In this document: in pieces, positions 23,807 to 47,032 of the stretch
How the letters are laid out: every line of letters begins with the position of its first letter
Position numbering within the stretch: position 1 is the stretch's first letter
From: an uncultured Actinomycetes bacterium
Lineage (GTDB): Bacteria > Actinomycetota > UBA4738 > HRBIN12
Direction of reading: 5' to 3'
Assembly (NCBI GenBank): GCA_963799625.1
Contig: CAWCXU010000013.1
Location: 475,709 to 539,708, forward strand
Length of the DNA stretch: 64,000 bases
The notes under the pieces: model-generated
Database searches by the model: none
Seen by the model: the letters and a program-made list of their open reading frames with translations, nothing else
Told to the model about the DNA's origin: nothing
Made by a program: the position numbers and the translations under genes

Positions 23807-24517
23807 GTTCCCGCTGGTCACGAGGGAGGTTTCCCCCTGCTCGCCGTCTTCACCGACACGGTCCAACGGCTGGTCGCCGACAACGGCTACCTGGCGGTGT
23901 TCCTGTTGATGCTGCTCGGCTCGATCTGCATCCCCATCCCTTCCGAGGTGGTGATGGCCTTCGCGGGCGCCCTGTGCGCTCCGGCTTTCGCCGCAAGCAT
24001 CCTCGGCACCCCCGACGCCGCCCTCTCGGTCGGCTGGGTGATCGGCTGGGGCATCGCCGGGAGCATGGTCGGCTCCTGGCTGGCCTATGCCCTGGGGGCC
24101 TGGGGCGGCCGCCCGGCGATCGACCGGTGGGGCCGATACCTCTTGTTGCGCCCCCACGAGGTGGACCGGGCGCACGGATGGTTCGAACGCCGGGGCGAGG
24201 CCGTCGTATTCCTCGGCCGCCTCGTCCCCCTCATCCGAGCCTTCGTCAGCCTCCCCGCCGGCGTCGCCCGCATGGACCTGAAGCGCTTCACCCTGTTCAC
24301 GCTGTTCGGCGTGATCCCCTGGTGCCTCGGCCTCGCCCTCGCCGGCAAAGCCCTAGGCGCCCAATGGCAAACCCTCGAGAACTACTTCGCCCCCGCCGCG
24401 ATCCTGGCCGCCATCGCCCTCATAGGAGCGATCGCCTGGTGGATCTGGAAACGCCGCAGACTGGCAGCGGCCTTGGCAAGCGGAGACGGGCACGGACCGA
24501 GCGACCGTCTGGACTGA
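23807..24517 (+). CDS. DedA/SNARE-associated (TVP38/TMEM64) family membrane protein
   Basis: YLAVFLLMLLGSICIPIPSEVVMAFAG...FLGRLVPLIRAFVSLPAGVARM (DedA signature). The ORF extends to 23681, but the N-terminal 40 aa overlap the divergent topA start. The true, probably non-ATG, start is uncertain. Confidence 0.65.
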   Translation, partial: VPAGHEGGFPLLAVFTDTVQRLVADNGYLAVFLLMLLGSICIPIPSEVVMAFAGALCAPAFAASILGTPDAALSVGWVIGWGIAGSMVGSWLAYALGAWGGRPAIDRWGRYLLLRPHEVDRAHGWFERRGEAVVFLGRLVPLIRAFVSLPAGVARMDLKRFTLFTLFGVIPWCLGLALAGKALGAQWQTLENYFAPAAILAAIALIGAIAWWIWKRRRLAAALASGDGHGPSDRLD

Positions 24518-24573
24518 GCGAGCGAAGCGAAGCGAGGGAAGCAGGGAGCGAGGGCCATGCCCGTCTCCGCGAC

Positions 24574-25062
24574 CTACAGATTCGCCACCATCGTCCAGTG
24601 ATCCCCACCATCACCAGACTCCGCGACCTTCTCGAACCCCGCCTTCTGGTACATCATCCGCGACCGGTTGTGGACCGCGACCGACAGCGACAAGGCCTGG
24701 AACCCTTCCTCGCGTGCCTGGACCATGCACGAGCGCAGGACCGCCTCACCGATCCCCTTGCGCCGGTGCAGCGGCACCACCGCGATCGACAACTCCGGGG
24801 TCTTCTCGTCGACGAAGCCGTAGCCGGGCTTGTCCTCCTCGAAGAGCCGGTACCAGGCCGCGCCGACCGGCTCCCCGTCGATCTCGGCGACGACCCCGCC
24901 GTCGCCACGCCGGCCCCACCCCTGGTGGTAGCGCAGCATGATCGGATCGGCGAGCACCTCTTCGATCGGCTCGCGAGGCCAGTCGGGGTTCCACCGGGCG
25001 GCCTCGTACATCATCTTCCGCAGGAAGGGCAGGTCCTCCGGCATCACGGGGCGGATGTTCAT
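24574..25062 (-). CDS. GNAT-family N-acetyltransferase
   Basis: Acetyl-CoA binding motif A-like VVPLHRRKGIGEAVL, and motif B ...YQKAGFEKV. Confidence 0.8.
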   Translation of the reverse strand: MNIRPVMPEDLPFLRKMMYEAARWNPDWPREPIEEVLADPIMLRYHQGWGRRGDGGVVAEIDGEPVGAAWYRLFEEDKPGYGFVDEKTPELSIAVVPLHRRKGIGEAVLRSCMVQAREEGFQALSLSVAVHNRSRMMYQKAGFEKVAESGDGGDHWTMVANL

Positions 25063-25088
25063 GGCTCGATGCTAGCGCAGCCCATCGC

Positions 25089-27425
25089 TCAGACGGTCTC
25101 GGTCTCGCTGGTCGGCGTGCCCGACACCAGCATCGGCACCGAGGACAGCACCACGCGGTCCTCGTAGAGGAACAGCCGCTTGATGAACAGCGCGTTCTGG
25201 TTGTGCAACGGCAGCTGCCACCAATGGTTCACGATCACCTCGGGCACGATCACGTTGACCACGCTGCCCGGGTCCGACGAGTAGCGCCGCACCTCCTCGA
25301 GCATCGGCCCGGTCAGGTCGCGGAACGGCGCCTCCACGATGTCCAGCGGCACCCCGAGCCCGGCGTCGAACCACGCGGTCTCGAGCTTGTGCGCCGCCTC
25401 GGGATCGAGGTCGAAGTAGATCGCCCGCGTGACGCTCGCGTCCAGGGACCGCGCGTAGTTCACCGCACGGATCGTGAGGTCGTTCACGCTGGACAGGAAC
25501 ACCAGCGCGACCGTGCGGTGCGGGATCAGGGGCTTCCCGTCGACCCCGCGCACACCCTCGTGCGTGACGACGACGGGCACGTCGGTCACCACCACGTGCG
25601 GGATCCGAAGGAGCGACGCCTTGAGCCGCAGGAGATCCGACCGACGCAGCACGTAGGCGGGCAGACCCGATCCGACGAGCTCGGGCACGATCAGGTTCAC
25701 GACGTCGTGCGGGCCGAGATCCATCGACGCGATGGATCGTCGGACGCTCGCCGTCAGGCTCCCGGACCCGGCCGCCACGAGCGGCGGGGCACCGGCGCCG
25801 TACAGGGCCGTCCACTGCTCGGCGAGCTCAGCCGGCACCGAGGCGCGCGGGGTGAGCGCCCGCAGCGAGCGCGGGTGGAACGACCGGACGTAGCCGAGCG
25901 CCTCGGCGACCGCGGCATCGACGTCGCGGACCAGCAACACCACGTGGGTCTGCCCCGTCACACCCACCCGCTCGGTCCCGCGATGCACCGCCGAGCGGAC
26001 CCACGTGTAGTGGCGGTGGATCGCGTAGAACAGCGGCACGAGCAGCGCCATGATCAAGATCGAGAGCCAGGCGCCGTCCTTGAACTTCGACAGGATGACG
26101 ACGATCAGCACCACGAAGGTGGTGATCGCGCCGATGATGTTGATGACGATCGAGCGGCGCCACCCCTTCGCCGCGCCCTCGCCTTTGCGGCCCTCGGCGA
26201 GCCAGTGCCGCACCATCCCGCTCTGCGACAGCGTGAACGACGTGAACACGCCGACGACGTAGAAGTGGATCAGCGTGTTCAGGTCGGCGTCGAAGATGTA
26301 GATCATCAGCGACGACAGCAGCCCGAGCGCGACGACGCCGTTGGAGAACACGAGCCGGTCGCCCCGGTTCACGAACTGGCTCGGCATGAACCGGTCGCGT
26401 CCGAGGATCGAGGCGAGCCGTGGGAAGTCCTGGTACGCGGTGTTCGCCGCGAGGATCAAGATCGCGGCCGTGAACGCCTGCACCACGTAGAACCCGAGCG
26501 AGTTGTTGCCGAAGATCGCGACCGAGATCTGGGCGACGGCGGATCGCTCCTCGCTCGCGACGACCCCGTGCACGTGGGTCGCCAGGTAGGAGATCCCGAG
26601 GAACATCGTGACGGCGATCGTCCCCATGATCGCGAGCGTCGTCGCCGCGTTCCGGGCCTGGGGCCGTTTGAACGCCGGCACGCCGTTCGAGATCGCCTCG
26701 ACCCCGGTGAGAGCGGTCGCACCCTGGGAGAACGCCTTGAGCAGCGCGAAGACCGTGATCCCCGCGACCGCCGCCGGCGCCGCGATCTGCTCGGACGCCG
26801 GCACGACCGCCGGGCACCCGCCGAGGCACCGCACGGCCCCCACCCCGATGAGGACCAGGATCGACACGACGAACCCGTAGGTGGGGACCGCGAACAACGT
26901 GCCGGACTCGCGCGCGCCGCGGAGGTTCGCGATCGTCACGAGGGCGACGAACATGATCGACAGGACGACCTTGTGCTGGTTCGCCCACGGGAACGCCGAC
27001 CCGATCGCGAACACGCCGGCCACGATCGAGACGATCACCGTCATCATGTAGTCGAACAGCAATGCGGCAGCCGCGACGAGCCCCGCGAACGTGCCGAGGT
27101 TCTCCTTGCTCACGATGTAGGCCCCGCCGCCGCTGGGGTAGGCGCGGACGGTCTGCCGATACGAGCTCACGACGATCGCCATCAGCGCCGCGATCGCGAA
27201 CGAGATCGGCATCACGTACTTCGTGGGCGACGTCGTCGCGATCGTCAGGGCGATCAAGATCTCCCCGGTCGCGTAGGCAACCGACGACAACGCGTCGGAG
27301 GCGAAGACCGGGAGCGCGAGGATCTTCGGCAACAGCGTGTGCTCGAGGTGTTGGCTCGAGAACGCGCGGCCCACGAGGAACCGCTTCGCGAGCGATCCGG
27401 TCGAGGACTTGGCTTGGGCGTTCAT
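25089..27425 (-). CDS. KimA-family K+ transporter homologue (APC superfamily, usually annotated 'amino acid permease') with an enlarged, apparently duplicated C-terminal cytoplasmic domain (778 aa)
   Basis: TM core shares KimA/YdaO signature blocks: SDALSSVAYATGEIL, SYRQTVRAYPSGGGAYIVSKENLG, DYMMTVIVSIVAG, LTGVEAISNGVPAFKRPQARNAATTLA, LAANTAY, GVFTSFTLSQSGM, and C-terminal ...LHNQNALFIKRLFLYEDRVV. The cytoplasmic domain region occurs twice. Last gene of the HK1-RR1 operon (40-bp gap). Confidence 0.75.
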   Translation of the reverse strand: MNAQAKSSTGSLAKRFLVGRAFSSQHLEHTLLPKILALPVFASDALSSVAYATGEILIALTIATTSPTKYVMPISFAIAALMAIVVSSYRQTVRAYPSGGGAYIVSKENLGTFAGLVAAAALLFDYMMTVIVSIVAGVFAIGSAFPWANQHKVVLSIMFVALVTIANLRGARESGTLFAVPTYGFVVSILVLIGVGAVRCLGGCPAVVPASEQIAAPAAVAGITVFALLKAFSQGATALTGVEAISNGVPAFKRPQARNAATTLAIMGTIAVTMFLGISYLATHVHGVVASEERSAVAQISVAIFGNNSLGFYVVQAFTAAILILAANTAYQDFPRLASILGRDRFMPSQFVNRGDRLVFSNGVVALGLLSSLMIYIFDADLNTLIHFYVVGVFTSFTLSQSGMVRHWLAEGRKGEGAAKGWRRSIVINIIGAITTFVVLIVVILSKFKDGAWLSILIMALLVPLFYAIHRHYTWVRSAVHRGTERVGVTGQTHVVLLVRDVDAAVAEALGYVRSFHPRSLRALTPRASVPAELAEQWTALYGAGAPPLVAAGSGSLTASVRRSIASMDLGPHDVVNLIVPELVGSGLPAYVLRRSDLLRLKASLLRIPHVVVTDVPVVVTHEGVRGVDGKPLIPHRTVALVFLSSVNDLTIRAVNYARSLDASVTRAIYFDLDPEAAHKLETAWFDAGLGVPLDIVEAPFRDLTGPMLEEVRRYSSDPGSVVNVIVPEVIVNHWWQLPLHNQNALFIKRLFLYEDRVVLSSVPMLVSGTPTSETETV

Positions 27426-27465
27426 CGGCCCACGATGCTACGGCCCCGCCGGGCCGGTCCGGTCG

Positions 27466-28149
27466 TCACGACGCGTCGGCAACCCATCGGTACCCAACGC
27501 CCGGCTCGGTGACGATCAACGCCGGGGCCGAGGCGTCGTCGCCGAGCTTGCGCCGGAGCGCGCGGACGTAGGTGCGCAGGTACGTGGTCTCGGTGCCGTA
27601 CCCCTGCCCCCAGACGCGTCGCAGCAGCCACTGGTGGGTGAGCAGCTTGCCCGGGTTCGTCACCAGGACTTCGAGCAGGCCGTACTCGGTCGGCGTCAGG
27701 TGGACCTGCTCCCCGTCGATCGTCACGAGCTGCTTGGCGAGGTCCACCTGAAGCGCCCCGAAGACGAGGAGTGGGGCGTCGGGCTCACCCGAACCCTTGC
27801 GCCGCAGGGCTGCGCGTGAACGGGCGAGGAGCTCTTCCATCCCGAACGGCTTGGTGACGTAGTCGTCGGCGCCGGCGTCGAGCGCGGCGACCTTGTCGCT
27901 CTGCCCCTCGCGGACCGACAGGACGATGATCGGGACCTCGGAGAAGGCGCGCACCCGGGTGATCACCTCGGTGCCGTCCATGTCGGGCAGGCCGAGGTCG
28001 AGCAGGATCAGCTCGGGGTGCTGGCTCGCGGCGGCGACCACGCCCTCGTCGCCGGTCCCCACGGTCTCGACGACGTAGCCGTGCGCCTCCAGGCTCGTGC
28101 GGAGCGCGCGGCGGATCTGCGGCTCGTCGTCGACCACCAGCACCTTCAC
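27466..28149 (-). CDS. OmpR/KdpE-family response regulator (RR1)
   Basis: VKVLVVDDEPQIRRAL...LILLDLGLPDMDG...DAGADDYVTKPF; winged-helix C-terminus (LTPTEYGLLEVL...GVGYRW). GTG start overlaps the HK1 stop (GTGA). Confidence 0.85.
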   Translation of the reverse strand: MKVLVVDDEPQIRRALRTSLEAHGYVVETVGTGDEGVVAAASQHPELILLDLGLPDMDGTEVITRVRAFSEVPIIVLSVREGQSDKVAALDAGADDYVTKPFGMEELLARSRAALRRKGSGEPDAPLLVFGALQVDLAKQLVTIDGEQVHLTPTEYGLLEVLVTNPGKLLTHQWLLRRVWGQGYGTETTYLRTYVRALRRKLGDDASAPALIVTEPGVGYRWVADAS

Positions 28150-29627
28150 GCAGCCTCCTCCTCGATCGGCAGGTCCAGGACCAGGGCGGTCCCGCCGCCG
28201 GCGGTCTCCTCCACCCAGATCCGGCCGCCGTGCGCGGTCACGACGGCCCGCGCGATCGACAGTCCGAGCCCGCTGCCGGGCCGTTCGGGCTCCTCGCGGC
28301 CACGATAGAAGGGTTCGAACACCTTCTCGCGTTGCGCGAGAGGGATGCCCGGGCCTTCGTCGGCGACCCGCACGCGCACGGACGCGCCCTCGCGCGACAG
28401 GTGGATCCGGACGGTCCCGTTCGGCGGCGAGTGGCGCGCGGCGTTCTCCACGAGGTTGGTGAGCACCTGATCGAGCTGCATCGGGTCGGCCGCGATCTCC
28501 GGGAGCTCGTCGGGCACCTGCAGCTCCACCCGCACGCGCTCGAGCTGGGGCCGCATCCGCGCCACCACCGCGCCGGCGACCTCCTCGACGTCGGTCGGCA
28601 CGCGACGCGGGATCAACGCGCCGGCGCGGATCCGGGCGAGATCCAGGATGTTGCCCACCAGCCGGTTCAGGCGATCGGTCTCCTCGAGGATCGTCGTGAG
28701 GAGCTCGCGCTGCTGCGTCGCGTCGTGCACGGTCGAGGCGTCGAGCAGGCTCGTGACGCCGGCCTTGATGGACGCGAGCGGCGTGCGCAGGTCGTGTGTG
28801 ACCGAGGAGAACATCGCCGCGCGCAGCTGGTTGGTCTCGGCGTCGAGCTGGGCGAGCCGCGCGCGCGCGTCGAGGCGGGCACGGTCCAGCGCCACCGCCG
28901 CCTGGCGCGTCGCCGCCTCCAGGAGCTCGCGCTCGCGCCGCGTGAACGAACGCGCGCGCGCGGGCCGCTCGGTCGTCAGCGTCCCCAAGGGGACCGTCGC
29001 GATCACGACCGGCACGATCTCGGTCGGGCCGCCCAGCTCGGCGCCCTCGCGCCGCGCGATCGCGCTCATCTCCTGCCCGTCGAGCACCACTTGGACGCTG
29101 CAGATCGCCAGCCCGAACGGATCCAGCAACAGCGCGACGAACTCGTCGAGCACCCGATCGGGGACGTCGCCGGACAAGAGCTTGCTCGACAGGAGCGCGA
29201 GCAACCGGGCCTCGCGCTCGCGCTCGGTGGCCCGGCGCCGCTCCGCCGCGGCGTTCCCGACCACCAGACCCACCACAGCGGCGATCGCGAGGAACACCAC
29301 CGAGGCGATCACGTCGCGGAGTTGCTCGAACTGGAACCCGTTCGCGGGCTGCTCGATCCACGGCAGGGCCACCGATGACAGCAGCGCCGTCACGATCCCC
29401 GCCCAGATGCCGCCGCTGACCGCCGCGATCGTGACGGCGAGCATGAAGATCGCGACCCCCGCCCCGGGCCCGAGATCCCTGGTCAGGGCCACCAAAACGG
29501 CGCCGCACAGGGCCGCGCCGACCCCGATCGCGAGGGCGCGCGCCGAGATCTGGTCCACCCGCGGTTCCCTGCGATCCATCGCCACGACGGACACGCTACC
29601 GCCTCTATCTGCGCGATCCGGGCGCAT
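28146..29627 (-). CDS. KdpD-type sensor kinase lacking the N-terminal KdpD/Usp domains (DUF4118-like 4-TM + GAF + HisKA + HATPase_c), HK1
   Basis: Four TM helices then ...SSVTHDLRTPLASIKAG (H-box), N-box NLVENAARHSP, and DEGPGIP, GSGLGLSIARAVVTAHGG. Confidence 0.85.
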   Translation of the reverse strand: MRPDRADRGGSVSVVAMDRREPRVDQISARALAIGVGAALCGAVLVALTRDLGPGAGVAIFMLAVTIAAVSGGIWAGIVTALLSSVALPWIEQPANGFQFEQLRDVIASVVFLAIAAVVGLVVGNAAAERRRATEREREARLLALLSSKLLSGDVPDRVLDEFVALLLDPFGLAICSVQVVLDGQEMSAIARREGAELGGPTEIVPVVIATVPLGTLTTERPARARSFTRRERELLEAATRQAAVALDRARLDARARLAQLDAETNQLRAAMFSSVTHDLRTPLASIKAGVTSLLDASTVHDATQQRELLTTILEETDRLNRLVGNILDLARIRAGALIPRRVPTDVEEVAGAVVARMRPQLERVRVELQVPDELPEIAADPMQLDQVLTNLVENAARHSPPNGTVRIHLSREGASVRVRVADEGPGIPLAQREKVFEPFYRGREEPERPGSGLGLSIARAVVTAHGGRIWVEETAGGGTALVLDLPIEEEAA

Positions 29628-29654
29628 CCGGGGCGGGCCGGAGGGGAGAGGTCG

Positions 29655-29703
29655 TTCACGTTTTCTTCACGCGCCCTCGGGCATCCTTCACGCCCCGCTC
29701 ACG
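29655..29703. promoter_or_regulatory. Phased hexamer direct repeats TTCACG (x3) + CTCACG at 29655, 29666, 29687, 29698 (spacings 11/21/11 bp). Candidate OmpR/KdpE-type response-regulator box in the HK1/trkA divergent intergenic region.
   Basis: Read directly: cgTTCACGttttcTTCACGcgccctcgggcatccTTCACGccccgCTCACGct. The helical-turn phasing is typical of winged-helix RR tandem sites. Lies 28-76 bp upstream of the HK1 ORF start. Confidence 0.35.
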
Positions 29704-29917
29704 CTCATGCGACGACGCTTAGCGGCGGAAAGAGGGTCTCGTTGACCCCGGTGTCGGACCGTCACCCCCGGCACCGGTCGATGCGAGACGGAACACGAAC
29801 GAACCCACTTTCCTCCGAGCCCGTCTGCGGGGCCGGCAGCTCCCTCCAGCTGTCGGCCCGCAGGCATATCTGGGGCCGATCACGCCAAGGTCACGAGGCG
29901 GCGCACGCTGTCAGGCG

Positions 29918-30604
29918 GTGCACACGCGGGTACGCTTCCCGGCCATGCGGGTCCTGATCATGGGATGCGGTCGGGTCGGTTCCGAGCTCTCCCACGCGCT
30001 CGGCGACGCCGGTCACGAGGTCACGGTGATCGACAAACGCGCCGAGGCGTTCGATCGCTATCCCCCCGGCGAGCACGCGCGCACGATCGTCGGTCTCGGG
30101 TTCGACCGCGACGTGCTCGAGGAGGCCGGGATCCGCGAGGCCGATGCGTTCATCGCGGTCTCGAGCGGCGACAACTCCAACATCGTGTCGGCGCGCGTCG
30201 CGCTCGAGCACTACCACGTGCCCAAGGTGATCGCGCGGATCTTCGACCCGCGGCGCGCCGAGATCTACGAGCGGCTCAACATCCCGACGGTCGCGACGAC
30301 CACGTGGGGCGTGAAGCAGTTCCAGCTGATGCTGCTGCACACCGGCAAGGAGGTGCGCGAGAGCCTCGGCGGCGGCGAACTCCTGCGGGTGCGCGTCCCG
30401 GTGCCGAGCCACCTGGTCGGCAAGCCGGTGTCGACGTTGAACGTCGACGGGCACATCCTCGTCGCCGGCGTGTCGCGCGGCGGCAAGGGGTTCATCCCGT
30501 CGATCGACAGCACGCTGCAGGAGGGCGACTTCCTGATCGTCACGATGGGCAAGGACTACATGGACGAACTCGACACATTGCTCGAGCCGACGGAGCACCG
30601 CTGA
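29918..30604 (+). CDS. trkA: TrkA/CeoB-like K+ uptake regulatory protein (RCK/KTN NAD-binding N domain + TrkA_C)
   Basis: MRVLIMGCGRVGSELSHAL (GxGxxG Rossmann) ...C-terminal TrkA_C (LLRVRVPVPSHLVGKPVSTLNVDGHILVAGVSRGG). Stop overlaps the next trkA start (TGATG). Confidence 0.85.
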   Translation: MHTRVRFPAMRVLIMGCGRVGSELSHALGDAGHEVTVIDKRAEAFDRYPPGEHARTIVGLGFDRDVLEEAGIREADAFIAVSSGDNSNIVSARVALEHYHVPKVIARIFDPRRAEIYERLNIPTVATTTWGVKQFQLMLLHTGKEVRESLGGGELLRVRVPVPSHLVGKPVSTLNVDGHILVAGVSRGGKGFIPSIDSTLQEGDFLIVTMGKDYMDELDTLLEPTEHR

Positions 30605-31269
30605 TGCGGGTCGTGGTGACCGGGGGCGGCGCGATCGGACGCCACGTCGCAGGCGACCTCAGCACGCGCGGCCACGACGTCACGCTGATCGAGCAGGACA
30701 AGCAGACCGTCGAGGACCTCCGCGAGGAGATCCCCGAGGTGACGATCATGCTCGGCGACGCGTGCGAGCCGTGGGTGCTCGACGACGCGGAGCTCGCCCG
30801 CGCCGACGTGGTGGTCGCCGCTACCGGCGATGACGAGGACAACCTGGTCACGTCGCTGCTCGCCAAGCAGGAGTTCGCCGTGCCGAGGGTGCTCGCGCGC
30901 GTCAACCACCCGAAGAACGAGTGGCTCTTCACCGATCAGTGGGGTGTCGACACCGCCGTCTCGCCGCCCCACATGCTGACGTCGATGGTGGAGGAGGCCG
31001 TCACGACGGGCGACCTGGTGCAGCTCCTGCGGCTCGAGGGCGGCCAGATCTCGATCGTCGAGATGAAGCTCGCCGCCGACTCGCCGGCCGTCGGCAGGCC
31101 GATCTACGAGCTCCGCCTGCCCAACGACGCCGCGATCGTCGCGATCGTGCGCGACGCGCACGTCGTGATCCCGCAGCCCGAGACCGTGCTCGGCGGCGGC
31201 GACGAGCTGGTGGCGCTCGCCGCGATCGGGACCGAGCAGGCGCTTCGGGCCGCGATCGTCGGCGACTGA
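30604..31269 (+). CDS. trkA: Second TrkA/CeoC-like K+ uptake regulatory protein
   Basis: MRVVVTGGGAIGRHVAGDL...TrkA_C (ISIVEMKLAADSPAVGRPIYELRLPNDAAIVAIVRD). Confidence 0.85.
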   Translation: MRVVVTGGGAIGRHVAGDLSTRGHDVTLIEQDKQTVEDLREEIPEVTIMLGDACEPWVLDDAELARADVVVAATGDDEDNLVTSLLAKQEFAVPRVLARVNHPKNEWLFTDQWGVDTAVSPPHMLTSMVEEAVTTGDLVQLLRLEGGQISIVEMKLAADSPAVGRPIYELRLPNDAAIVAIVRDAHVVIPQPETVLGGGDELVALAAIGTEQALRAAIVGD

Positions 31270-31282
31270 GGCGGTCCGCCGC

Positions 31283-31975
31283 TCAGCCGCTCGGCTCGAC
31301 CTGCCAGCGATACCCGATCCGTGACTCGGTCACGATCGCGCGTGGGTGCCGCGGGTCGGGTTCGATCTTGCGCCGGAGCTGACTGACGAAGACCCGGAGC
31401 GCCTCGACGTCGGGGGCGCCGTCGGCGTCCCACACCTCGGCCAGCAGCCAGTCGTGCGTGCGGAGCACGCCCGGCGCGGTGGCGAGCGCCTCCAGCAGGC
31501 GCCACTCGGTCGGCGTCAGGTGGACCTGGTCCTCGCCGCGCCGCACGGATCGCGCGCCCAGGTCGATCCGGATGTCGTCGACCTCGAACCGGGTGCCGCT
31601 CGGCTCGGGCGCCGCCCGCCGCAGGAGCGCCCGTACCCGGGCCAGGAGCTCGGCAGCGCCGAACGGCTTCGTCAGGTAGTCGTCGGCGCCGAGGTCGAGC
31701 GCGGCGACCTTGTCCTGCTCGGCGTCGCGCACCGACAGCACGAGGATCGGCACCGAGCTGAACCGCCGGATCTCCCGGCAGGCGGTGAGCCCGTCGACGT
31801 GCGGCAGGTTGAGATCGAGCACGACCAGGTCGGGCTCGCGGTCGCGGACCGCGCCGACCGCGGCGCGCCCGTCGGTCGCCGTCGCGACGCGGAAGTCGCG
31901 GGCGAGCAGCGTCCGCTCCACCGCGCGGAGGATCTGGGGCTCGTCGTCGACGACGAGGATCAACGGGTCGCTCAT
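31283..31975 (-). CDS. OmpR/KdpE-family response regulator (RR2)
   Basis: MSDPLILVVDDEPQILRAV...LVVLDLNLPHVDG...winged helix LTPTEWRLLEAL...IGYRW. ATG overlaps the HK2 stop (ATGA). Confidence 0.85.
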   Translation of the reverse strand: MSDPLILVVDDEPQILRAVERTLLARDFRVATATDGRAAVGAVRDREPDLVVLDLNLPHVDGLTACREIRRFSSVPILVLSVRDAEQDKVAALDLGADDYLTKPFGAAELLARVRALLRRAAPEPSGTRFEVDDIRIDLGARSVRRGEDQVHLTPTEWRLLEALATAPGVLRTHDWLLAEVWDADGAPDVEALRVFVSQLRRKIEPDPRHPRAIVTESRIGYRWQVEPSG

Positions 31976-33360
31976 GCCGCCGGGAGCCGGAACCCCATCG
32001 TCGTTCCCCCGCCCGGGGTGTCGGTCGCCCAGATCTCGCCGCCCATCGCGGTGACGAAGCCCTTGCAGATCGCGAGACCGAGCCCGGCACTCAGGCGCGG
32101 CGACCCTTCCTGCAGCTTGTAGAACGGTGTGAAGAGCAGCTGCTGGTCGCCGAACGCGAGGCCGGGCCCGTGGTCGACCACCTGCACGACGACCACGCCG
32201 TCCGCCCGCTCCGCGGCGAGCTCGATCCGCCGGTCGGCGGCGCCCCGCACGGCGCGCGCCGCGTTCTCCACGAGGTTGGTGACGACCCGCTCCACGAACA
32301 GCTCGTCGCCCCGGACGCGGACGGCGTCGTCGGCGACCCGCACGTCGATCTCGACGCCCGGCCAGCGCTCGCGCACGCCGTCGACCGCCGGACCGACGAG
32401 ATCGTCCAGATCGACGAGGTCGGCGTGGGCCACGAGCGTGCCCGACTCGATCCGGGACATGTCGAGCAGGTTCGTGATCAGCTGCGCGAGCCGCCCGGCC
32501 GACGCGCGAACGTCCTCGAGCACGACCCGGGCGCTCTCGGGGTCGAACGTCTCGCGGTCGAGGATGTCGGTGACCGACGCGGTGATGGCGGCGATCGGGC
32601 TCTTCAGCTCGTGCGAGGCGGCCGCCAGCAACGATCGCCGCATGTCCTCGGTCCGCTTGTACAGCTCGGCCTCGCGGAGCTCCTGCTCCAGCCGCTCGGC
32701 CTGCACCACCAGCGCGACCTCGTCGGCGAACGTGCGGACGACACGGGTCTCGGCGGCCGTCAACGCCGGGCGATCCCCGACGAAGACCAACGAACCGACC
32801 CGCGCCGGGCCGACCCGCAGCGGGAACGCGGTCGCCGAGGAGGCGGCCGGATCGTCCTCGTCGCGGACCGAGGCCAGGACGAACCCGAGGCGTTCGGCCG
32901 CGCGACCGAGCGCCGGGGTAAGGCCCTCCGCCCGCTCGGACACCAGCACGTGGCTCAGATCGAACAGCAGCCGGACCTCCGCCTCGCGGTCCTCGGCCGC
33001 GGTCGCGCGCTCGTGCGCGACGCCCACCAGCCACGAGATCAACAGCGACATCGCGATGAACGCGAAGAACGCGACGACGTACTCGGTCCGCTCGAGGTCG
33101 AAGGTGCCGTAGGGGGGGAGGAACCCGACGTTGTACAGCGCCGACCCGACGATCGCGGCGACGATGCCGGGGACCACCCCACCGAGCCACGACGCCACCA
33201 CCACCGGCACGAGGAACGCGAACGCCGTCAGGGTGTGCGACAGCTGCACCCGGAAGGGCTCCATCACGGCGGCGATCGCGAGGGGGCCGAGCGTGGCGAC
33301 GAGGTAGGCGGCGCCGAGCAGCCACGAGGGCCTGCGGACGCCCAGCACACGCGTCGACAC
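31972..33360 (-). CDS. KdpD-type transmitter-only sensor kinase HK2 (4-TM + GAF + HisKA + HATPase_c)
   Basis: TM block ...NVGFLPPYGTFDLERTEYVVAFFAFIAMSLLIS (DUF4118-like FLPPY motif), H-box AAASHELKSPIAAITAS, HATPase motifs. GTG start at 33360 preferred. An alternative ATG at 33465 would overlap the divergent permease gene. Confidence 0.8.
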   Translation of the reverse strand: MSTRVLGVRRPSWLLGAAYLVATLGPLAIAAVMEPFRVQLSHTLTAFAFLVPVVVASWLGGVVPGIVAAIVGSALYNVGFLPPYGTFDLERTEYVVAFFAFIAMSLLISWLVGVAHERATAAEDREAEVRLLFDLSHVLVSERAEGLTPALGRAAERLGFVLASVRDEDDPAASSATAFPLRVGPARVGSLVFVGDRPALTAAETRVVRTFADEVALVVQAERLEQELREAELYKRTEDMRRSLLAAASHELKSPIAAITASVTDILDRETFDPESARVVLEDVRASAGRLAQLITNLLDMSRIESGTLVAHADLVDLDDLVGPAVDGVRERWPGVEIDVRVADDAVRVRGDELFVERVVTNLVENAARAVRGAADRRIELAAERADGVVVVQVVDHGPGLAFGDQQLLFTPFYKLQEGSPRLSAGLGLAICKGFVTAMGGEIWATDTPGGGTTMGFRLPAA

Positions 33361-33398
33361 GGCCGCGGTCCGATCCACGCTCGCAACGATAGTCGCCC

Positions 33399-33418
33399 TT
33401 ACGGAACCCTTATCCCGC
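33399..33418. promoter_or_regulatory. 20-mer TTACGGAACCCTTATCCCGC: two half-sites (TTACGG / TTATCC) 11 bp apart, in the HK2 / kimA-like-2 divergent intergenic region. 17/20 identical to a motif upstream of kdpF.
   Basis: Direct sequence comparison with 38151..38170 (TTACGGATCCCGTATGCCGC). Confidence 0.35.
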
Positions 33419-33437
33419 GCTTCTAGCGTGGACCGTG

Positions 33438-35891
33438 ATGCAGACCGACGACGCACCTCCCGCAACGTCCGCGGCGCCCGAGGCCGCGAGCCCTCCCTCC
33501 CGGCCGGCCGCGCGCCCGCCCTTGCCCCGGAGCTCGAGCTACGGGGTCAAGCGGGCGTTCCTCGGACCGGCGCTCCCGACCGCTCACCTGGTGCACGAGC
33601 GGCTCGGCAAGATCGCCGCGCTCGCGATCTTCAGCTCGGACGCGCTCTCCTCGGTCGCCTACGCCACCGAGGAGATGCTGAAGACCCTGGTGATCGCCGG
33701 GGTCGGCGTGCTCGCGTTCTCGCTGATCGTGCCGTTGTCGGGGGCGATCGTGGCCGTCCTCGCGATCCTCGTCTTCAGCTATCGGCAGACGATCAAGGCC
33801 TACCCGTCGGCGGGCGGCGCCTACATCGTCACGAAGGACAACTTCGGACTGATCCCAGCCCAGGTGGCCGGCGTCGCGCTGCTGACGGATTACGTGCTGA
33901 CCGTCGCGGTGTCGGTGTCCGCCGGCGTCGCGGCGATCATCGCGCTCGTGCCGGTGACCGCGCCGTTCCGCGTCGAGATGGCCGTCGCGTCGATCGCCCT
34001 GATCGCCTACGGCAACCTCCGGGGCGTCCGGGAGTCCGGGAAGATCTTCGCGGCGCCGACCTACGTGTTCATCGGGTGCATCATGTCGCTGCTCATCGTC
34101 GGGGTCGTGCGCGCGGCGACCGGGTCGCTCGCCGTGCCGCCGCCGGTCACGACAGGCGGCGCGCTGTCGGCCTTCGCGCTCGTCCCCGCGTTCGTCGCGT
34201 TGCACGCGCTGGCATCGGGCAGCACGGCGATGACGGGCGTGGAGGCGATCTCGAACGGCGTGCCGGCCTTCAAGCCCGTCGAATGGAAGCACGCGAGGCA
34301 GACGCTCGTCGCGCTCGGGCTGCTTCTGGCCACGATGTTCATGGGGATCTCGTGGCTCGCCGCGAAGCTCCAGGTCGCGCCGGACTTCACCGGGCGCTCG
34401 ACGGTGGTCGCCGACATCGGCAAGGCGGTCTACGGCACGAGCCCGCTCGGGCACGCCGCCTTCGCCCTGCTGCAGATCGCGACGGCGCTGATCCTCGTGC
34501 TCGCGGCCAACACGGCCTACGCCGACTTCCCACGTCTGGCGAACTTCCACGCCGGGGACGACTTCTTGCCGCGGCAGTTCACGACGCGCGGGCACCGGCT
34601 CGTGTTCTCGAACGGGATCTTGGCGCTGTCGGCGGCCGCGATGCTGCTGGTCGTCCTGTTCCGCGCCGACGTGACGCGGCTGATCCCGTTCTACGCGATC
34701 GGGGTGTTCACCTCGTTCACGCTGTCGCAGGCGGGGATGGCCAAGCGGCACCTCAGGCTTCGCGAGGAAGGGTGGCGGGTCGGCCTCGCGATCAACGGGG
34801 TCGGCGCCGTCGCGACGGGGGTCGTGCTCGCGATCGTGGCCCGGACGAAGTTCGCCGAGGGCGCCTGGGTGATCTTGATCCTCGTGCCGGTGATGGTTGT
34901 CCTGCTGGTGCGGATGAACCACCAGTACGAGCGCGAGAAGAGGGAGCTCGAACGGGACCTGAAGGCGTTCACGCCGCCGACCAGCCGGCCCCCGATCACG
35001 ATCTTGCTCGTCGAGGACCTCGACCCCAAGACCGTGCACGCGTTGCAGTACGCCCGGACGATCCGCTCCGAGCGGACGATCGCCGTGCACGTCGAGGAGG
35101 ACCGCGCGCGCACGCAGGCGCTCGAGGCCGCGTGGCAGACCGCCGGACTCGACGCGATCCCGCTGCGGATCGTGCGCGGCCGCGGCGACGAGGCGGCGCG
35201 CCTCGCCGGCTTCCTCGCGGCCTACGAGCGTGAGGACCGGGACGCGATCGTGATCGTGCCCGTCCCTCACGAACGGACGTTGCGCGAGCACGTCGCCGAC
35301 CGGCGCGCAGGCGCGCGGCTGCACCGCGCGCTCCTGTCCTACGGTCATGTGCGGGTCACCATGGTCCGCGACCACCCCGACGGCGTGCACCCCTTGCAGC
35401 GTGACGAGGACGGGCGACCGGTCGTGCGCCTCACCGCCCGGCAGACGCACGACGTCGTCGTGTTGGTCGACAAGCTCGACCGAGCGACGCTGCAGGCCGT
35501 CGCGTACGCGCTCGGGCTCGGCACGCGGTCGGTCCGCGCGGTCCACGCCGCCGTCGACCCCGATCGGGCAACCCGCCTCGCGGAGCGGTGGTCGGAGCTG
35601 CGTGCACCCGTCCCTCTCGACGTGATCGAGTGCTGGGACCGGGACGTGCCCCGCGCGGTCGAGCGCTACGTCGTCGGCATGGCGTCGGAGGGCACCGAGG
35701 TGACGGTCGTCATGCCCCGGCGCGACTACCCGCGCCTGCGCCAGCGGCTCCTGCACGACCGCACGAGCCGGAAGATCGAGCGGGCGCTCGGGCGCTACGC
35801 GCACATCGACGTCGCGGACATCCCGTACTACGTCCGGGGCGTGCCCGAGCCGATCGACGCGCGGGCCGAGGACGTCCTCGAGCCCGTCTGA
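33438..35891 (+). CDS. KimA-family K+ transporter homologue 2 (818 aa) with extended C-terminal cytoplasmic domain
   Basis: Same signature blocks as the paralogue (SSDALSSVAYATEEML, SYRQTIKAYPSAGGAYIVTKDNFG, MTGVEAISNGVPAFKP, LAANTAYADFPRLA, GVFTSFTLSQAGM) plus C-terminal ITILLVEDLDPKTVHALQYARTIRSERTIAVHVEED. Stop abuts the stop of the convergent kdpE-like gene. Confidence 0.75.
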   Translation: MQTDDAPPATSAAPEAASPPSRPAARPPLPRSSSYGVKRAFLGPALPTAHLVHERLGKIAALAIFSSDALSSVAYATEEMLKTLVIAGVGVLAFSLIVPLSGAIVAVLAILVFSYRQTIKAYPSAGGAYIVTKDNFGLIPAQVAGVALLTDYVLTVAVSVSAGVAAIIALVPVTAPFRVEMAVASIALIAYGNLRGVRESGKIFAAPTYVFIGCIMSLLIVGVVRAATGSLAVPPPVTTGGALSAFALVPAFVALHALASGSTAMTGVEAISNGVPAFKPVEWKHARQTLVALGLLLATMFMGISWLAAKLQVAPDFTGRSTVVADIGKAVYGTSPLGHAAFALLQIATALILVLAANTAYADFPRLANFHAGDDFLPRQFTTRGHRLVFSNGILALSAAAMLLVVLFRADVTRLIPFYAIGVFTSFTLSQAGMAKRHLRLREEGWRVGLAINGVGAVATGVVLAIVARTKFAEGAWVILILVPVMVVLLVRMNHQYEREKRELERDLKAFTPPTSRPPITILLVEDLDPKTVHALQYARTIRSERTIAVHVEEDRARTQALEAAWQTAGLDAIPLRIVRGRGDEAARLAGFLAAYEREDRDAIVIVPVPHERTLREHVADRRAGARLHRALLSYGHVRVTMVRDHPDGVHPLQRDEDGRPVVRLTARQTHDVVVLVDKLDRATLQAVAYALGLGTRSVRAVHAAVDPDRATRLAERWSELRAPVPLDVIECWDRDVPRAVERYVVGMASEGTEVTVVMPRRDYPRLRQRLLHDRTSRKIERALGRYAHIDVADIPYYVRGVPEPIDARAEDVLEPV

Positions 35892-36591
35892 TCACGCGTC
35901 GCCGGCCGGATCCTCGCTCCAGCGGTACCCGATCCCCGGCTCGGTGACGATCGCCCGCGGGCGCCGCGGATCGGGCTCGATCTTGCGCCGGAGCTGGCTG
36001 ACGAACACGCGAAGCACCTCGACGTCCTCGCCGTACGGGTCCCCCCAAACGCGTTCGAGCAGCCACCGGTGGGTGAGCAGCTTCCCGGGGTGGGCCGTGA
36101 GCGCCTCCAGCAGCGCCCACTCCGTCTTGGTGAGATGCACGTCGCCGTCACCCCGCGTGACGCGGTGCGCCTGCATGTCGATCGACACGCCGTCGAGCCG
36201 GTACCGCGCCGTCCCGTCGGCGGGGGCCCCCTCGCCCCGGCGCAGCAGCGCGCGGACGCGCGCGAGCAGCTCCCCCGTGCCGAACGGCTTCGTCAGGTAG
36301 TCGTCGGCCCCGAGGTCCAGCGCGGCGATCTTGTCGGGCTCCTCGTCGCGCACCGACAGCACGATGATCGGCACGCTGCTCCACGCGCGGATCCGCCGGC
36401 AGAACTCGAGCCCGTCGAGCACCGGCATGTTGAGATCGAGGACCACGAGATCAGGTGGCGACGCCGCCGCGAGGTCGAGTGCCAACAGCGCCGTCGGGGG
36501 CGAGCTCGACCGCATAGTCTCGCGCGACGAGCGATCGTTCGATCGCCTCGCGGATCTGCGGCTCGTCGTCGACCACGAGGATCTTCGTCAC
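35892..36591 (-). pseudogene. kdpE: KdpE-like OmpR-family response regulator (RR3) with a frameshift near 36503. Possible pseudogene or assembly indel.
   Basis: N-terminus VTKILVVDDEPQIREAIERSLVARDYAVELAPDG in one frame. The remainder (ALLALDLAAASPPDLVVLDLNMP...winged helix...GIGYRW) is in the frame of ORF 35892..36515(-). A 2-nt loss in a gcgc context fits. GTG start overlaps the kdpD3 stop (GTGA). Confidence 0.7.
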
Positions 36592-38087
36592 GAGGCCTCC
36601 TGCAACGAGAAGGCGAAGGTCGCGCCCCCGCCAGGGGTGTCCTCGAGCCAGATCTCCCCGCCCATCAGATCGACGAACCCCCGCGCGATCGCGAGCCCGA
36701 GGCCGGAGCCGAGTTTCGTCGTCCGCTCGTCGAGCCGGGCGAAGGGCAGGAACAGCTGGGTGCGCTCCCGCGTGGTGAGTCCCGCCCCGTGGTCGACGAC
36801 CTTGACCGCCACCTGGGCGCGCCGTTGCCCGTGGTCGGTCGGACCGATCTCGATCTCCACCGACGGGCTGCCGGCGGCCACGGCCGACCGCGCCGCGTTG
36901 TCCAGGAGGTTCGACACCACCCGGGGGAAGAAGACCGGGTCGGCGACCGCGACCTCGTGCCCGTCGTCGATCGCCATGGCGATGTGCACGTCGGGCCAGC
37001 GCAGCGCCGCCGCGTCGACCTCGGCCGTGACGGTCTCCGCGAGATCGACGTGCTCGAGGTGCGCCTGCACGACGCCGGCCTCGATCCGCGACAGGTCCAG
37101 GAGGTTCGCGACGAGCGCGTCGAGCCGGTCGGCCTCGCTGTCGACCACGTGCAGGACGGCCGCACGCTCCGCCGTCGAGCGCTCCACCTCGGGATCGAGC
37201 AGATCGGTGACCGACGCCTTGATCGCCGCCAGGGGGCTCCGGAGGTCGTGCGAGACCGCGGCGAGCATCGTTCGGCGCGCCGTCTCGGTCTGCCGGAGGA
37301 TCTCGGCGTCGGTCGCGGTGCGCAGCAGCCGGTCGCGCTCGAGCACCAGCGCGAGCTGGTCACAGACCGCACGCAGCACCCGCACCTCCGCGGGGTCCAG
37401 CGCGGGCCGCGACCCGGTGAGCACGATCAGGCCCAGCGTTCGGTTGCCGACCGACAACGGCAGCCGTTGCGGCGCGCGTCCCGGGTCGGCCGGGTTCCAC
37501 GACGGGCTGATCGACCCGGCCGGAGCGCCGACGACCACCCGCTCGTCGAGCCCACCCTCGGCGCCGCTCACGAACAGGGCGCCCGCGTCGAATCCGAACC
37601 GCGTGACGACGTCGCCGAGCAGCGCGCCGTACATCTCCTCTCCCGGACCCCGCACCACGAGGTCGCGGCTCAGCTCCTGCAGCGTCTGCAGCTCGCGCTC
37701 CTTCGCCTCGGCGACCTCCGCCCGCTCCACCGCACGGGAGTAGAGCGAGGAGATCAGCACCGACAACGCGAGGAACACGACGAGCGCGACCACGTGCTCG
37801 CCCCGTGCGATCACGAACGAGTCGTACGGCGGCAGGAAGAAGAAGTTGAACGTCAGGAACGACACGACCGCCGCGAGCAACCCCGGTCCCAGCCGCCCGA
37901 CGATCGCCGCGGCGACCACGACGACCAGGAAGGTGAAACCGATCGTGAGCGGCTGCAAGGTGTCGCGGAACGGGAGGAACACGAGCACGACAGCCGCCGG
38001 ACCGGCGACCGCGATGAGGTACCCGATCGCGCGAAGACGTCCTCTCGGCGCCGCGCGGAGCAGCGCGAGGGTGCGTGCGGTGCGCAT
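36588..38087 (-). CDS. kdpD: KdpD-type transmitter-only sensor kinase HK3, divergent from kdpFABC
   Basis: FLTFNFFFLPPYDSFVIARGEHVVALVVFLALSV (DUF4118 signature), GAF-like middle, H-box AAVSHDLRSPLAAIKAS, HATPase (LLDNAARSAV, DHGAGL, GSGLGLAIARGFVDLMGG). Confidence 0.85.
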   Translation of the reverse strand: MRTARTLALLRAAPRGRLRAIGYLIAVAGPAAVVLVFLPFRDTLQPLTIGFTFLVVVVAAAIVGRLGPGLLAAVVSFLTFNFFFLPPYDSFVIARGEHVVALVVFLALSVLISSLYSRAVERAEVAEAKERELQTLQELSRDLVVRGPGEEMYGALLGDVVTRFGFDAGALFVSGAEGGLDERVVVGAPAGSISPSWNPADPGRAPQRLPLSVGNRTLGLIVLTGSRPALDPAEVRVLRAVCDQLALVLERDRLLRTATDAEILRQTETARRTMLAAVSHDLRSPLAAIKASVTDLLDPEVERSTAERAAVLHVVDSEADRLDALVANLLDLSRIEAGVVQAHLEHVDLAETVTAEVDAAALRWPDVHIAMAIDDGHEVAVADPVFFPRVVSNLLDNAARSAVAAGSPSVEIEIGPTDHGQRRAQVAVKVVDHGAGLTTRERTQLFLPFARLDERTTKLGSGLGLAIARGFVDLMGGEIWLEDTPGGGATFAFSLQEAS

Positions 38088-38150
38088 GGTCGAAGGATAG
38101 CCAGCGCGGCAACGACGCTCGACCGTCCGGACCGCCCGCGGACGAGACCT

Positions 38151-38170
38151 TTACGGATCCCGTATGCCGC
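38151..38170. promoter_or_regulatory. 20-mer TTACGGATCCCGTATGCCGC in the kdpD3 / kdpF divergent intergenic region. Conserved with 33399..33418. A further TCACGG hexamer lies about 25 bp downstream.
   Basis: Read directly; 17/20 identity to the HK2-permease2 intergenic motif. Confidence 0.35.
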
Positions 38171-38234
38171 ACGCGTCGTTCCTCACGGTTGCCTGATGTC
38201 CGCTGACTACGGTCGGGGCCAGGAGGTGAGGACC

Positions 38235-38318
38235 GTGTGGGATCTCTGGGTCGGCGTCATCACCGCGGTGTTCTTCGTGGTGGCCTTCGCCCTCGTCCGC
38301 TGGTTCGACGCGATATGA
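38235..38318 (+). CDS. Small hydrophobic leader peptide (27 aa, single TM) preceding kdpF/kdpA
   Basis: AGGAGG then GTG..., VWDLWVGVITAVFFVVAFALVRWFDAI*. Stop overlaps the next small ORF (ATGA). Confidence 0.4.
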   Translation: MWDLWVGVITAVFFVVAFALVRWFDAI

Positions 38319-38403
38319 ACATCGCCGATGCGCTCGAGCTCGCGCTCGCGCTCGCGCTGCTCGTCTATCTCGTGTACGTGTTGATCCGCCCGGAGCGATT
38401 CTG
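38314..38403 (+). CDS. kdpF: KdpF-like K+-transporting ATPase small subunit (29 aa)
   Basis: MNIADALELALALALLVYLVYVLIRPERF*. The LVYLVYVLI core resembles KdpF (…LGYLVYALI…). Its TGA overlaps the kdpA ATG. Confidence 0.55.
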
Positions 38404-40073: not shown

Positions 40074-40074
40074 G

Positions 40075-42142: not shown

Positions 42143-42726
42143 TCCGCACGATCGTCCGCGCGCTGCTCGCCACGCTCGTGCTCGCGGCCCTGACGGGGAT
42201 CGCGTACCCGCTGGTGATGACCGGGATCGGCCAGGTTGCGTTCGCCCACGACGTGAACGGCTCGCTCGTCGACGTCAACGGTCAACCGGTCGGCAGCTCG
42301 CTCATCGGACAGACCTGGAACGGCCCGGAGTGGTTCTACGGGCGACCGTCGGCGGTCGGCGACGACGCGTCGACGTCGTCGGGCTCGAACCTCGGGCCTC
42401 GGTCCCAACAGCTCGCCGACGACATCGAGACGCAGGCGCGCCAGATCCTCAAGATCGAGTCGCCCTACACACCCGGCCTCACGACGGCCAGCATCCCGGT
42501 CGACCTGGTGACCTCCTCGGGCAGCGGCCTCGACCCCGATATCTCGGTCGCCGCCGCCCGGTTCCAAGCGCCGCGGATCGCGGCCGTTCGCGGGCTCCCG
42601 CTCGACCAGGTGCTGAGCCTGATCGACGCGCACACCGCCCACGAGACCCTCGGGTTCCTCGGAGAGCCGCGGGTGAACGTCCTGGAGCTCAACCTCGCGC
42701 TGCAGGGGGTGGCGCCACGAGCGTGA
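42139..42726 (+). CDS. kdpC: KdpC (K+-transporting ATPase subunit C)
   Basis: [35 protein letters not shown]...[25 protein letters not shown] (KdpC signature). GTG overlaps the kdpB stop (GTGA). Confidence 0.8.
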
Positions 42727-43038
42727 CCACCGCCCTGCAGCGCACCGTCCTCGTGATGGGACGCCACGTCACGGAGCCACCACGGCTCTACCCGGGCGAC
42801 GTCGCCGGGTCGATGGCCGTCGTCGTGATCACGGTCGGGTGGCCGGTCACGTCGGCCCAGTCGATGGCGGTCGAACAAGCGCTCGAACTCGCGCGCGAGC
42901 GTCGCGTCGCGTTCGACGCGTTCCTGGTCGGCTCGATCACCGAGGGACTCGAGGTGGTCGACACCCGTGACCGGGTGCTGTTCGCCGGCGACCGACGCGA
43001 GGGGAAACGGATCGTGCGCGGCCTCGGCCCGCGCGGGA

Positions 43039-46895: not shown

Positions 46896-47032
46896 CGAAC
46901 CTCCCACAGGGATACGAGCTCCCCGGGCTTTGAGCCGCGGGGTCAAGGACCGGAGAAGGATACCGGACCTCGTGGTACGTGACCTGCGGAAGAAGGTCTC
47001 CCGGGGGCCCGGCTGCCGCTACGATGCAGCGC

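Follow-up and report, generated by a model that had tools for sequence, protein, structure and literature searches.

A KimA-like potassium transporter with a doubled cytoplasmic tail beside a KdpD/KdpE-like two-component system in an uncultured actinobacterium

What would a K+ importer gain from a second cytoplasmic tail domain, and what controls the expression of such a protein? The question is raised by a gene, here termed KimA-L1, within a 64,000-nt stretch of DNA from an uncultured Actinomycetes bacterium (GCA_963799625.1, contig CAWCXU010000013.1, positions 475,709 to 539,708), in the following called the window. A preliminary description, made from the letters of this stretch, took the product for a KimA-like K+ transporter with a duplicated C-terminal domain, encoded by the third gene of a KdpD/KdpE-like operon. 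Our whole explanation, which we consider probable, is that KimA-L1 would be a KimA-type importer with a doubled tail acting as a pseudo-dimer, expressed together with the adjacent two-component system TCS1, i.e., the histidine kinase HK1 and the response regulator RR1 (Table 1).

The open reading frame (ORF) has a GC content at third codon positions (GC3) of 0.96, which is typical of real genes in this window of 70% GC, and its protein is 100% identical to the representative of a 42-member database cluster. Compared by phmmer with all PDB sequences, the sole protein matched is Bacillus subtilis KimA (6s3k, 8b70, 8b71; E 2.9e-124). Residues 13-477 pair with KimA 5-458 and residues 623-764 with KimA 459-602, i.e., homology extends over the full length of the LeuT-fold core with its 12 transmembrane (TM) helices. 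The identity to KimA is 38-40%, while it is merely 12-15% to amino-acid transporters of the same fold. The four sequence blocks SDALSSVAY, YRQ..AYP.GGGAYIVSKENLG, LTGVEAISN..PAFK and LHNQ, in which a likeness to KimA had been noted before, all align to the KimA structure 6s3k. Since KimA comprises 607 aa, KimA-L1 is longer by 171 aa (about 170 had been estimated), and this surplus is located at residues ~478-622, between TM12 and the KimA-like tail.

For KimA, the roles of seven residues have been described (PMC6994465, PMC10284832). The residues of its K+ site, D36, Y43, T121, T230 and Y377, correspond to D44, Y51, T129, T240 and Y389 in KimA-L1, the proton-coupling E233 to E243, and D117, which mediates trans-inhibition, to D125. 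All of these positions are invariant in an alignment of 83 family sequences. That is, KimA-L1 shares with KimA the 12-TM core, an identical K+ site (D, Y, T, T, Y), the proton-coupling Glu and the trans-inhibition Asp. From this homology and residue conservation we infer K+ transport, and KimA-L1 is best understood as a KUP transporter of the KimA subfamily (APC superfamily) that imports K+ coupled to protons.

The additional part of the protein resembles the tail that follows it. We refer to the first copy as D1 and to the second, which is the counterpart of the single KimA tail, as D2. Their repeated segments read THVVLLVRD... from residue 492 and TVALVFLSS... from residue 638. BLASTP aligns residues 478-622 with 623-778 (E 2e-7, 28% identity over 135 aa), and a comparison of D1 and D2 profiles built from 245 homologues using hhalign yields a probability of 99.4% (E 4.7e-21, 125 columns). 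Such a likeness greatly exceeds what chance would produce. When the D1 profile is searched against the PDB, the sole significant match is the KimA cytoplasmic domain (residues 465-600, E 1.8e-5); the one other match is a designed Rossmann-fold protein at E 0.09. Within Pfam there is no model for the KimA tail, and neither D1 nor D2 matches Usp.

Structure prediction gives the same picture. An AlphaFold2 (AF2) model of D1 alone reaches a mean predicted local distance difference test (pLDDT) of 84.9, and the top three Foldseek hits of this model are KimA structures (query-normalised TM-score 0.65-0.67). They are followed by nucleotide adenylyltransferases, in accordance with PMC6994465, which assigns the KimA tail to this PPAT-like fold class. 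The KimA domain has five parallel strands in one sheet and four helices, and the models of D1 and D2 both display this beta-alpha pattern. The full-length model, computed from the 83-sequence alignment (pLDDT 81.2, predicted TM-score (pTM) 0.75), places D1 (strands 493-621) and D2 (strands 637-766) in identical beta-alpha-beta-alpha-beta-alpha-beta-alpha-beta order, i.e., residues ~470-778 are predicted to form two KimA-type domains. Sequence and model comparisons thus support the view that the extra ~170 residues represent a second, tandem copy of the KimA cytoplasmic domain: KimA has one such domain per protomer, while KimA-L1 has two per chain. The tandem domains proposed in the preliminary description are borne out by BLASTP, the profile-profile comparison and structure prediction alike. 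An extension unrelated to the KimA domain was considered as well and does not agree with these results. The proposed K+ transporter identity likewise holds, given the strong homology and the matched K+-site residues.

Two simpler accounts of the protein have to be weighed at this point. KimA-L1 might be an amino-acid or polyamine permease rather than a K+ transporter. Its sole Pfam match is indeed AA_permease_2, the source annotations label it 'amino acid transporter', and the databases mostly use 'amino acid transporter' or 'APC family permease'. We consider this very unlikely given the identities stated above, the invariance of all K+-site residues and of the proton-coupling residue, matches of some relatives to the Pfam family K_trans (PF02705) and a neighbourhood that is made up entirely of K+ genes. 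As the K+-site residues are invariant and the identity to amino-acid transporters is only 12-15%, the database label is very probably wrong. The extra domain, in turn, might be an artefact of assembly or gene calling, e.g., a fused or duplicated read region, and apparent frameshifts elsewhere in the window (kdpA, RR3) show that the sequence quality is imperfect. This account is refuted by the recurrence of the 775-830-aa architecture in hundreds of independent contigs from many species at 36-92% identity, and by the 28% identity of D1 and D2, which excludes a recent repeat.

To see which copy corresponds to the original tail, relatives of KimA-L1 were searched among 1.84 billion cluster representatives. 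At E <= 1e-3, this yields 12,109 relatives, of which 2,092 reach E <= 1e-30. Among the best 149 (representatives of 50%-identity clusters), 32 carry two tail domains, 88 one, and 29 no full-length tail, many of the latter being short. For 83 of the 88 single-domain relatives, a hidden Markov model (HMM) of D2 outscores that of D1. Four of the five exceptions are shorter proteins (495-645 aa) without a second full domain match, and one is an 885-aa protein with fragmented matches. By this scoring, D2 is the ancestral copy. The tail has been doubled by an internal tandem duplication, and D1, the copy placed between TM12 and D2, has diverged faster. The cross-profile scores are ambiguous on whether a single duplication preceded the split between KimA-L1 and its paralogue KimA-L2 in the same window: the L1-type D1 scores 69.6 against the L2-type D1 and 67.1 against its own D2, and the L2-type D1 scores 109 against its own D2. 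Overall, the D1 of either group stands no further from its own D2 than from the D1 of the other group. In 4/32 tandem representatives (P0276, P0325, P0353, P0269), the first tail domain is more D2-like than D1-like, which hints at independent, more recent tail duplications. Five further proteins of 750-810 aa (P0287, P0291, P0300, P0311, P0314) have a single tail domain; their KimA-core match begins at about residue 120-160, behind an N-terminal extension of ~110-150 aa.

For the taxonomic distribution, we surveyed GTDB contigs with one genome per species and counted a match of ~2,210-2,330 nt as the tandem form. It is found only in uncultured Actinomycetota, Gaiellales/Gaiellaceae, Acidimicrobiia and a few metagenome-assembled genomes (MAGs) labelled Acidobacteriota. 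The single form (~600-655 aa) occurs in Streptomyces, Nocardia, Micromonospora, Actinoplanes, Nakamurella, Nonomuraea and a Mycobacterium MAG. Its members in Streptomyces venezuelae, Vnz_27465 and Vnz_15480, have been described as unstudied (PMC10117811). Such single-domain proteins belong to the same subfamily and phylum as KimA-L1 and often stand beside a trkA pair; they differ in having one cytoplasmic domain and less frequently a two-component neighbour (3/49 vs. 15/30 tandem-type genes). The tandem-tail form was not found in the literature on KimA-like proteins, such that its combination with a two-component system is apparently an undescribed arrangement, widespread in little-studied soil Actinomycetota. 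A natural subfamily in which 32 of 149 representatives have a doubled tail lends itself to studying how a transporter is controlled by its tail.

KimA is the structural reference for all KUP transporters, and the single cytoplasmic domain of KimA is both the receptor of cyclic di-AMP (c-di-AMP) and the dimer clasp. The single domains of two KimA protomers form a ten-stranded sheet, which holds the domain-swapped dimer. In KimA-L1, D1 and D2 of one chain would form the pair that is made in KimA by two protomers. We lean slightly towards this intramolecular pairing, i.e., a predicted pseudo-dimer that replaces the intermolecular pair of KimA. The D1+D2 unit of the full-length model can be overlaid on universal stress proteins of the tandem type as well as on the C-terminal domains, likewise two-lobed, of cation-chloride cotransporters (CCCs), among the latter NKCC1 (8ste; 13.1, 223), MaCCC (3g40; 12.8, 215) and KCC-1 (6vwa; 12.0, 221). 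Full-length CCCs also rank right behind KimA in the Foldseek search with the full-length model, above APC transporters that lack a tail. According to PMC4301019, the CCC tail consists of two subdomains that are related to each other, have five strands each and are inverted relative to one another.

The cation-chloride cotransporters (SLC12: NKCC, KCC, NCC; MaCCC) thus have the APC core followed by a two-lobed C-terminal domain in common with KimA-L1. They differ in sequence, with 9-14% identity, and in the ion site, whose residues in KimA-L1 are of KUP/KimA and not of CCC type. Membership of KimA-L1 in SLC12 was considered and rejected given this low identity and KimA as the only sequence match in the PDB, i.e., the likeness is an architectural parallel, not family membership. 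The tandem-type universal stress proteins (TTHA0350 3ab7, Rv2623 3cis, UspE 4wy2) are soluble and stand alone, unlike the tail of KimA-L1, whose D1 and D2 derive from the KimA tail. The tandem-tail subfamily may show in this way how an APC transporter can gain a CCC-like two-lobed regulatory domain.

We also compared the c-di-AMP pocket, which in KimA comprises R337, H579, N580, Q581 and S582 (PMC10284832). D2 retains L740-H741-N742-Q743 in place of KimA L578-H579-N580-Q581, and S582 is replaced by N744. D1 reads L-R-R-S-D at this position, i.e., the HNQ motif is lost. In KimA-L2, the Arg at the R337 position is kept, and its D2 reads LHDRTS. Judged by these residues, the pocket appears to be kept only in part in KimA-L1, and any c-di-AMP-type pocket, if one remains, would sit in D2 alone.

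With regard to expression, KimA-L1 is separated from the upstream regulator by a gap of exactly 40 bp (the RR1 stop codon lies at 27466), in which no promoter-like, terminator-like or riboswitch site was found. HK1 and RR1 overlap by 4 bp, and the true start of HK1 may be a GTG or ATG ~40-55 bp downstream of the annotated one. The best NCBIfam match of RR1 is KdpE, with 242.6 bits under a cut-off of 325. HK1 scores 196.7 for KdpD, under a cut-off of 1123, with the match confined to the C-terminal third of KdpD; it shares with KdpD the membrane domain DUF4118 and the GAF-like, HisKA and HATPase domains, and has neither the N-terminal (KdpD-N) nor the Usp module of KdpD. As proposed for TCS1, both systems control K+ uptake; TCS1, however, adjoins a KimA-type symporter and not the Kdp ATPase kdpFABC, which is adjoined by another system of the window, TCS3.

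Six species (loci L001, L002, L009, L011, L012 and L020) share the co-directional order of kinase, regulator and transporter, with protein identities of 44-90%. Within 80 related loci, a regulator directly upstream on the same strand is found for 6/30 tandem-type genes and a divergent kinase/regulator pair for 9/30, while either arrangement occurs for 3/49 single-domain genes. A GNAT acetyltransferase gene follows the transporter in the window and in L001 and L011, and is probably the fourth gene of the operon. Consensus scans of positions 24400-30100 revealed no promoter-like or terminator-like site, where these scans cover promoter types other than the actinobacterial ones. KimA-L1 is most likely co-transcribed with the truncated KdpD-like kinase and the KdpE-like regulator, and both the placement 40 bp behind the regulator and the position as third gene of a KdpD/KdpE-like operon, as put forward in the preliminary description, find support in the synteny, the short gap, the conserved order and a conserved repeat array.

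This array consists of three phased direct repeats upstream of HK1 (Table 1). The composite pattern is unique in the window (0.00 expected by chance) and also immediately precedes the kinase gene in five related species (L002, L011, L012, L017 and L029) as well as, in degenerate form, in L009, where the surrounding intergenic sequence has otherwise diverged. Counts of the 7-mer CGTGAAS were also considered and discarded as uninformative: its 58 matches in the window are mostly intragenic and due to codon usage, i.e., specificity is found only in the composite phased pattern. OmpR-family regulators are expected to bind phased direct repeats, and the array is for this reason a good candidate for the RR1 operator, a candidate control element of KimA-type uptake. 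Phosphorylated RR1 would bind these three helically phased repeats in the promoter region, such that the transporter would be induced when the kinase senses K+ shortage. The candidate operator is made of GC-rich CGTGAAG repeats, while AT-rich half-sites are reported for E. coli KdpE (PMC3264566). As a separate observation, a TAGCGT hexamer is located 6-8 nt before a kinase GTG/ATG in L002 (5790-5800), L009, L011 and L012, and at ~29590 in the window. It fits the actinobacterial TANNNT -10 box of a putative leaderless transcript, in which case HK1 would start downstream of the ATG at 29627.

For B. subtilis, kimA is known to be under riboswitch control (bioRxiv 10.1101/2023.07.05.547876), i.e., a c-di-AMP (ydaO) riboswitch is located in its leader; KimA-L1, in contrast, has none and stands behind a two-component system. 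Rfam models identified no c-di-AMP riboswitch in the window at the gathering threshold, nor at E <= 1 across 24400-38500. The same holds for eight single-type loci from cultured genera and eight tandem-type loci (n=16). As none is present in these 16 other actinobacterial loci, with or without a two-component system, the absence of the riboswitch is the general state of actinobacterial KimA-like genes. Of the switch from riboswitch to two-component control that had been suggested earlier, the lack of a riboswitch at this locus stands, while an ancestral riboswitch and hence an evolutionary switch is unsupported given the generality of the lack. It is fair to say that two-component control stands in the place of a riboswitch here. 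In this sense, the locus suggests that soil Actinomycetota (Gaiellales, Acidimicrobiia, unnamed classes) put KimA-type uptake under KdpDE-type rather than riboswitch control.

Several observations weigh against the explanation as a whole. KimA-like proteins of Actinomycetota have no functional data (PMC10117811). The membrane-domain contact to c-di-AMP, R337 of KimA, is S349 in KimA-L1, although both the paralogue and the family consensus have R. The packing of D1 against D2 is taken from one monomer AF2 model without predicted aligned error (PAE). Given the sub-cut-off scores of HK1 and RR1 and the missing N-terminal module of HK1, K+ as the signal of this kinase is what we infer. The claim of co-transcription is an argument from synteny throughout, and the distance between the repeats and TAGCGT is ~60 nt greater in the window than in L002, L011 and L012, which makes the promoter geometry doubtful. 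It is conceivable that KimA-L1 is expressed independently of TCS1, where the adjacency reflects clustering of K+ genes and the regulator serves other targets, e.g., the divergent trkA genes. A promoter at the RR1 end or within the gap would be compatible with the scans, which cover types other than the actinobacterial ones, the repeat array sits in a region shared with the trkA genes, and 50% of the tandem-type genes stand without a neighbouring two-component system. We nevertheless regard independent expression as unlikely, since the gap is as short as 40 bp and free of terminator-like sites and the gene order persists across six species at the identities given above. In L029, moreover, where trkA is missing, the repeat separates the kinase gene from a divergently oriented tandem-type transporter gene.

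A further possibility concerns D1 itself, which might be a new ligand-sensing domain for a nucleotide or another effector, i.e., a second allosteric input that might also dock the kinase. D1 has conserved residues of its own (W538, D503, L606) and a conserved R-L-K stretch, and genes for tandem-type proteins are more often located beside a kinase that has lost its Usp module (15/30 vs. 3/49), a correlation that ignores shared ancestry. On the other hand, the HNQ motif, by which KimA contacts c-di-AMP (PMC10284832), has been lost from D1, and no ligand-binding motif was identified in D1. This renders a sensor role doubtful, albeit less so than independent expression. Unlikely, and slightly less probable than either, is a joint reading in which the pseudo-dimer recreates the SLC12 body plan within KUP, D1 has co-evolved with the truncated kinase and docks to or signals it, the resulting transporter-sensor complex reports K+ flux, and the duplication perhaps took place repeatedly, as each D1 is nearest to the D2 of its own protein. 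We retain the KimA-type importer with an intramolecular tail pair and TCS1-linked expression.

The surroundings of the gene are listed in Table 1. KimA-L1 is one arm of a K+ island. Its second tandem paralogue, the presence of three paralogous two-component systems and the GNAT gene were missed by the preliminary description.

Table 1. Features of KimA-L1 and of the surrounding K+ island, with positions given in window coordinates.
Feature	Position	Strand	Remarks
GNAT acetyltransferase gene	24574..25062	-	Acetyltransf_1 (Pfam); 26 bp downstream of KimA-L1
KimA-L1, RR1 and HK1	25089-29627	-	
KimA-L1, KimA-like K+/H+ symporter gene	25089..27425	-	intact ATG ORF, 778 aa
D2, residues ~630-770, counterpart of the single KimA cytoplasmic domain	25116..25538	-	KimA 459-602 alignment
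D1, residues ~486-622, inserted diverged copy of the KimA cytoplasmic domain	25560..25970	-	
TM core, residues 13-480, 12 helices, LeuT/APC fold	25986..27389	-	KimA 5-458 alignment; helices in AF2 model
Spacer, regulator stop codon to transporter ATG	27426..27465	-	40 bp
RR1, OmpR-family response regulator	27466..28149	-	Response_reg and Trans_reg_C (Pfam)
HK1, truncated KdpD-type histidine kinase	28146..29627	-	DUF4118, GAF-like, HisKA, HATPase
Three phased direct repeats, CGTGAAG-N14-CGTGAAG-N4-CGTGAA	29655..29692	-	spacing 21 and 11 bp; upstream of HK1
Two TrkA/RCK genes	29918-30604, 30604-31269	+	TrkA_N and TrkA_C (Pfam); divergent from HK1
TCS2 (RR2 31283-31975, HK2 31972-33465)	31283..33465	-	paralogous to TCS1
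KimA-L2, second tandem-domain paralogue	33435..35891	+	divergent from HK2/RR2
TCS3 (RR3, HK3)	35892-38087	-	
kdpFABC	about 38236-43000	+	
Stand-alone KdpD-N/Usp protein	43039-44226	-	beside kdpFABC
H+-pyrophosphatase	44619-46946	-	775 aa
NhaA	47382-48221	-	

KimA-L2 is 40% identical to KimA-L1 over the full length including both tail domains; its first possible start overlaps the HK2 ORF, i.e., the start codon is uncertain. The large ORF at 44619-46946 had been considered as a third KimA paralogue given its size and codon profile and was rejected as an H+-pyrophosphatase. TCS2 and TCS3 are close paralogues (kinases 42%, regulators 68% identical), while TCS1 is more distant (31% and 49-54%, respectively). 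Since the KdpD-N/Usp module stands alone beside kdpFABC and all three kinases of the window are devoid of it, KdpD appears to be split here. The 20-bp motif TTACGGAnCCCnTATnCCGC is found only at 33399-33418 and 38151-38170 on the (+) strand (0.07 expected by chance), i.e., in the HK2/KimA-L2 and HK3/kdpF intergenic regions. With a spacing of 11 bp, its TTAYSS half-sites are similar to KdpE boxes, which suggests that KimA-L2 and kdpFABC may share a regulator type. The motif is absent upstream of HK1, such that TCS1 would have a different operator. RR3 (35892-36590, (-) strand) is apparently frameshifted, with the N-terminus in one frame followed by a stop and a continuation in another, and kdpA (38404-40084, (+) strand) changes frame near 39350-39400; both are either pseudogenes or indel errors of the assembly.

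A trkA/RCK pair adjoins the KimA-like gene in 32/88 surveyed cases, namely 26/56 single-domain and 6/32 tandem ones. Examples of such pairs are found, among the loci L039-L078, in Streptomyces, Micromonospora, Nakamurella and a Mycobacterium MAG. This pairing raises the question of the missing membrane partner of the mycobacterial 'Trk' system (CeoB/CeoC). In the literature on Rv2690c and on CeoB/CeoC with TrkH, we found neither a function for the permease nor a membrane partner, and PMC6375644, which treats the M. tuberculosis CeoB/CeoC 'Trk', names no membrane subunit. A KimA-like permease could be this partner. Finally, in two Acidimicrobiaceae genomes (L073 4731-11184, L079 464-5554), a KimA-like gene of the single-domain type comes after full-length kdpD and kdpE in the same orientation, and kdpFABC is absent from the interval; in L073, trkA1 and trkA2 follow.

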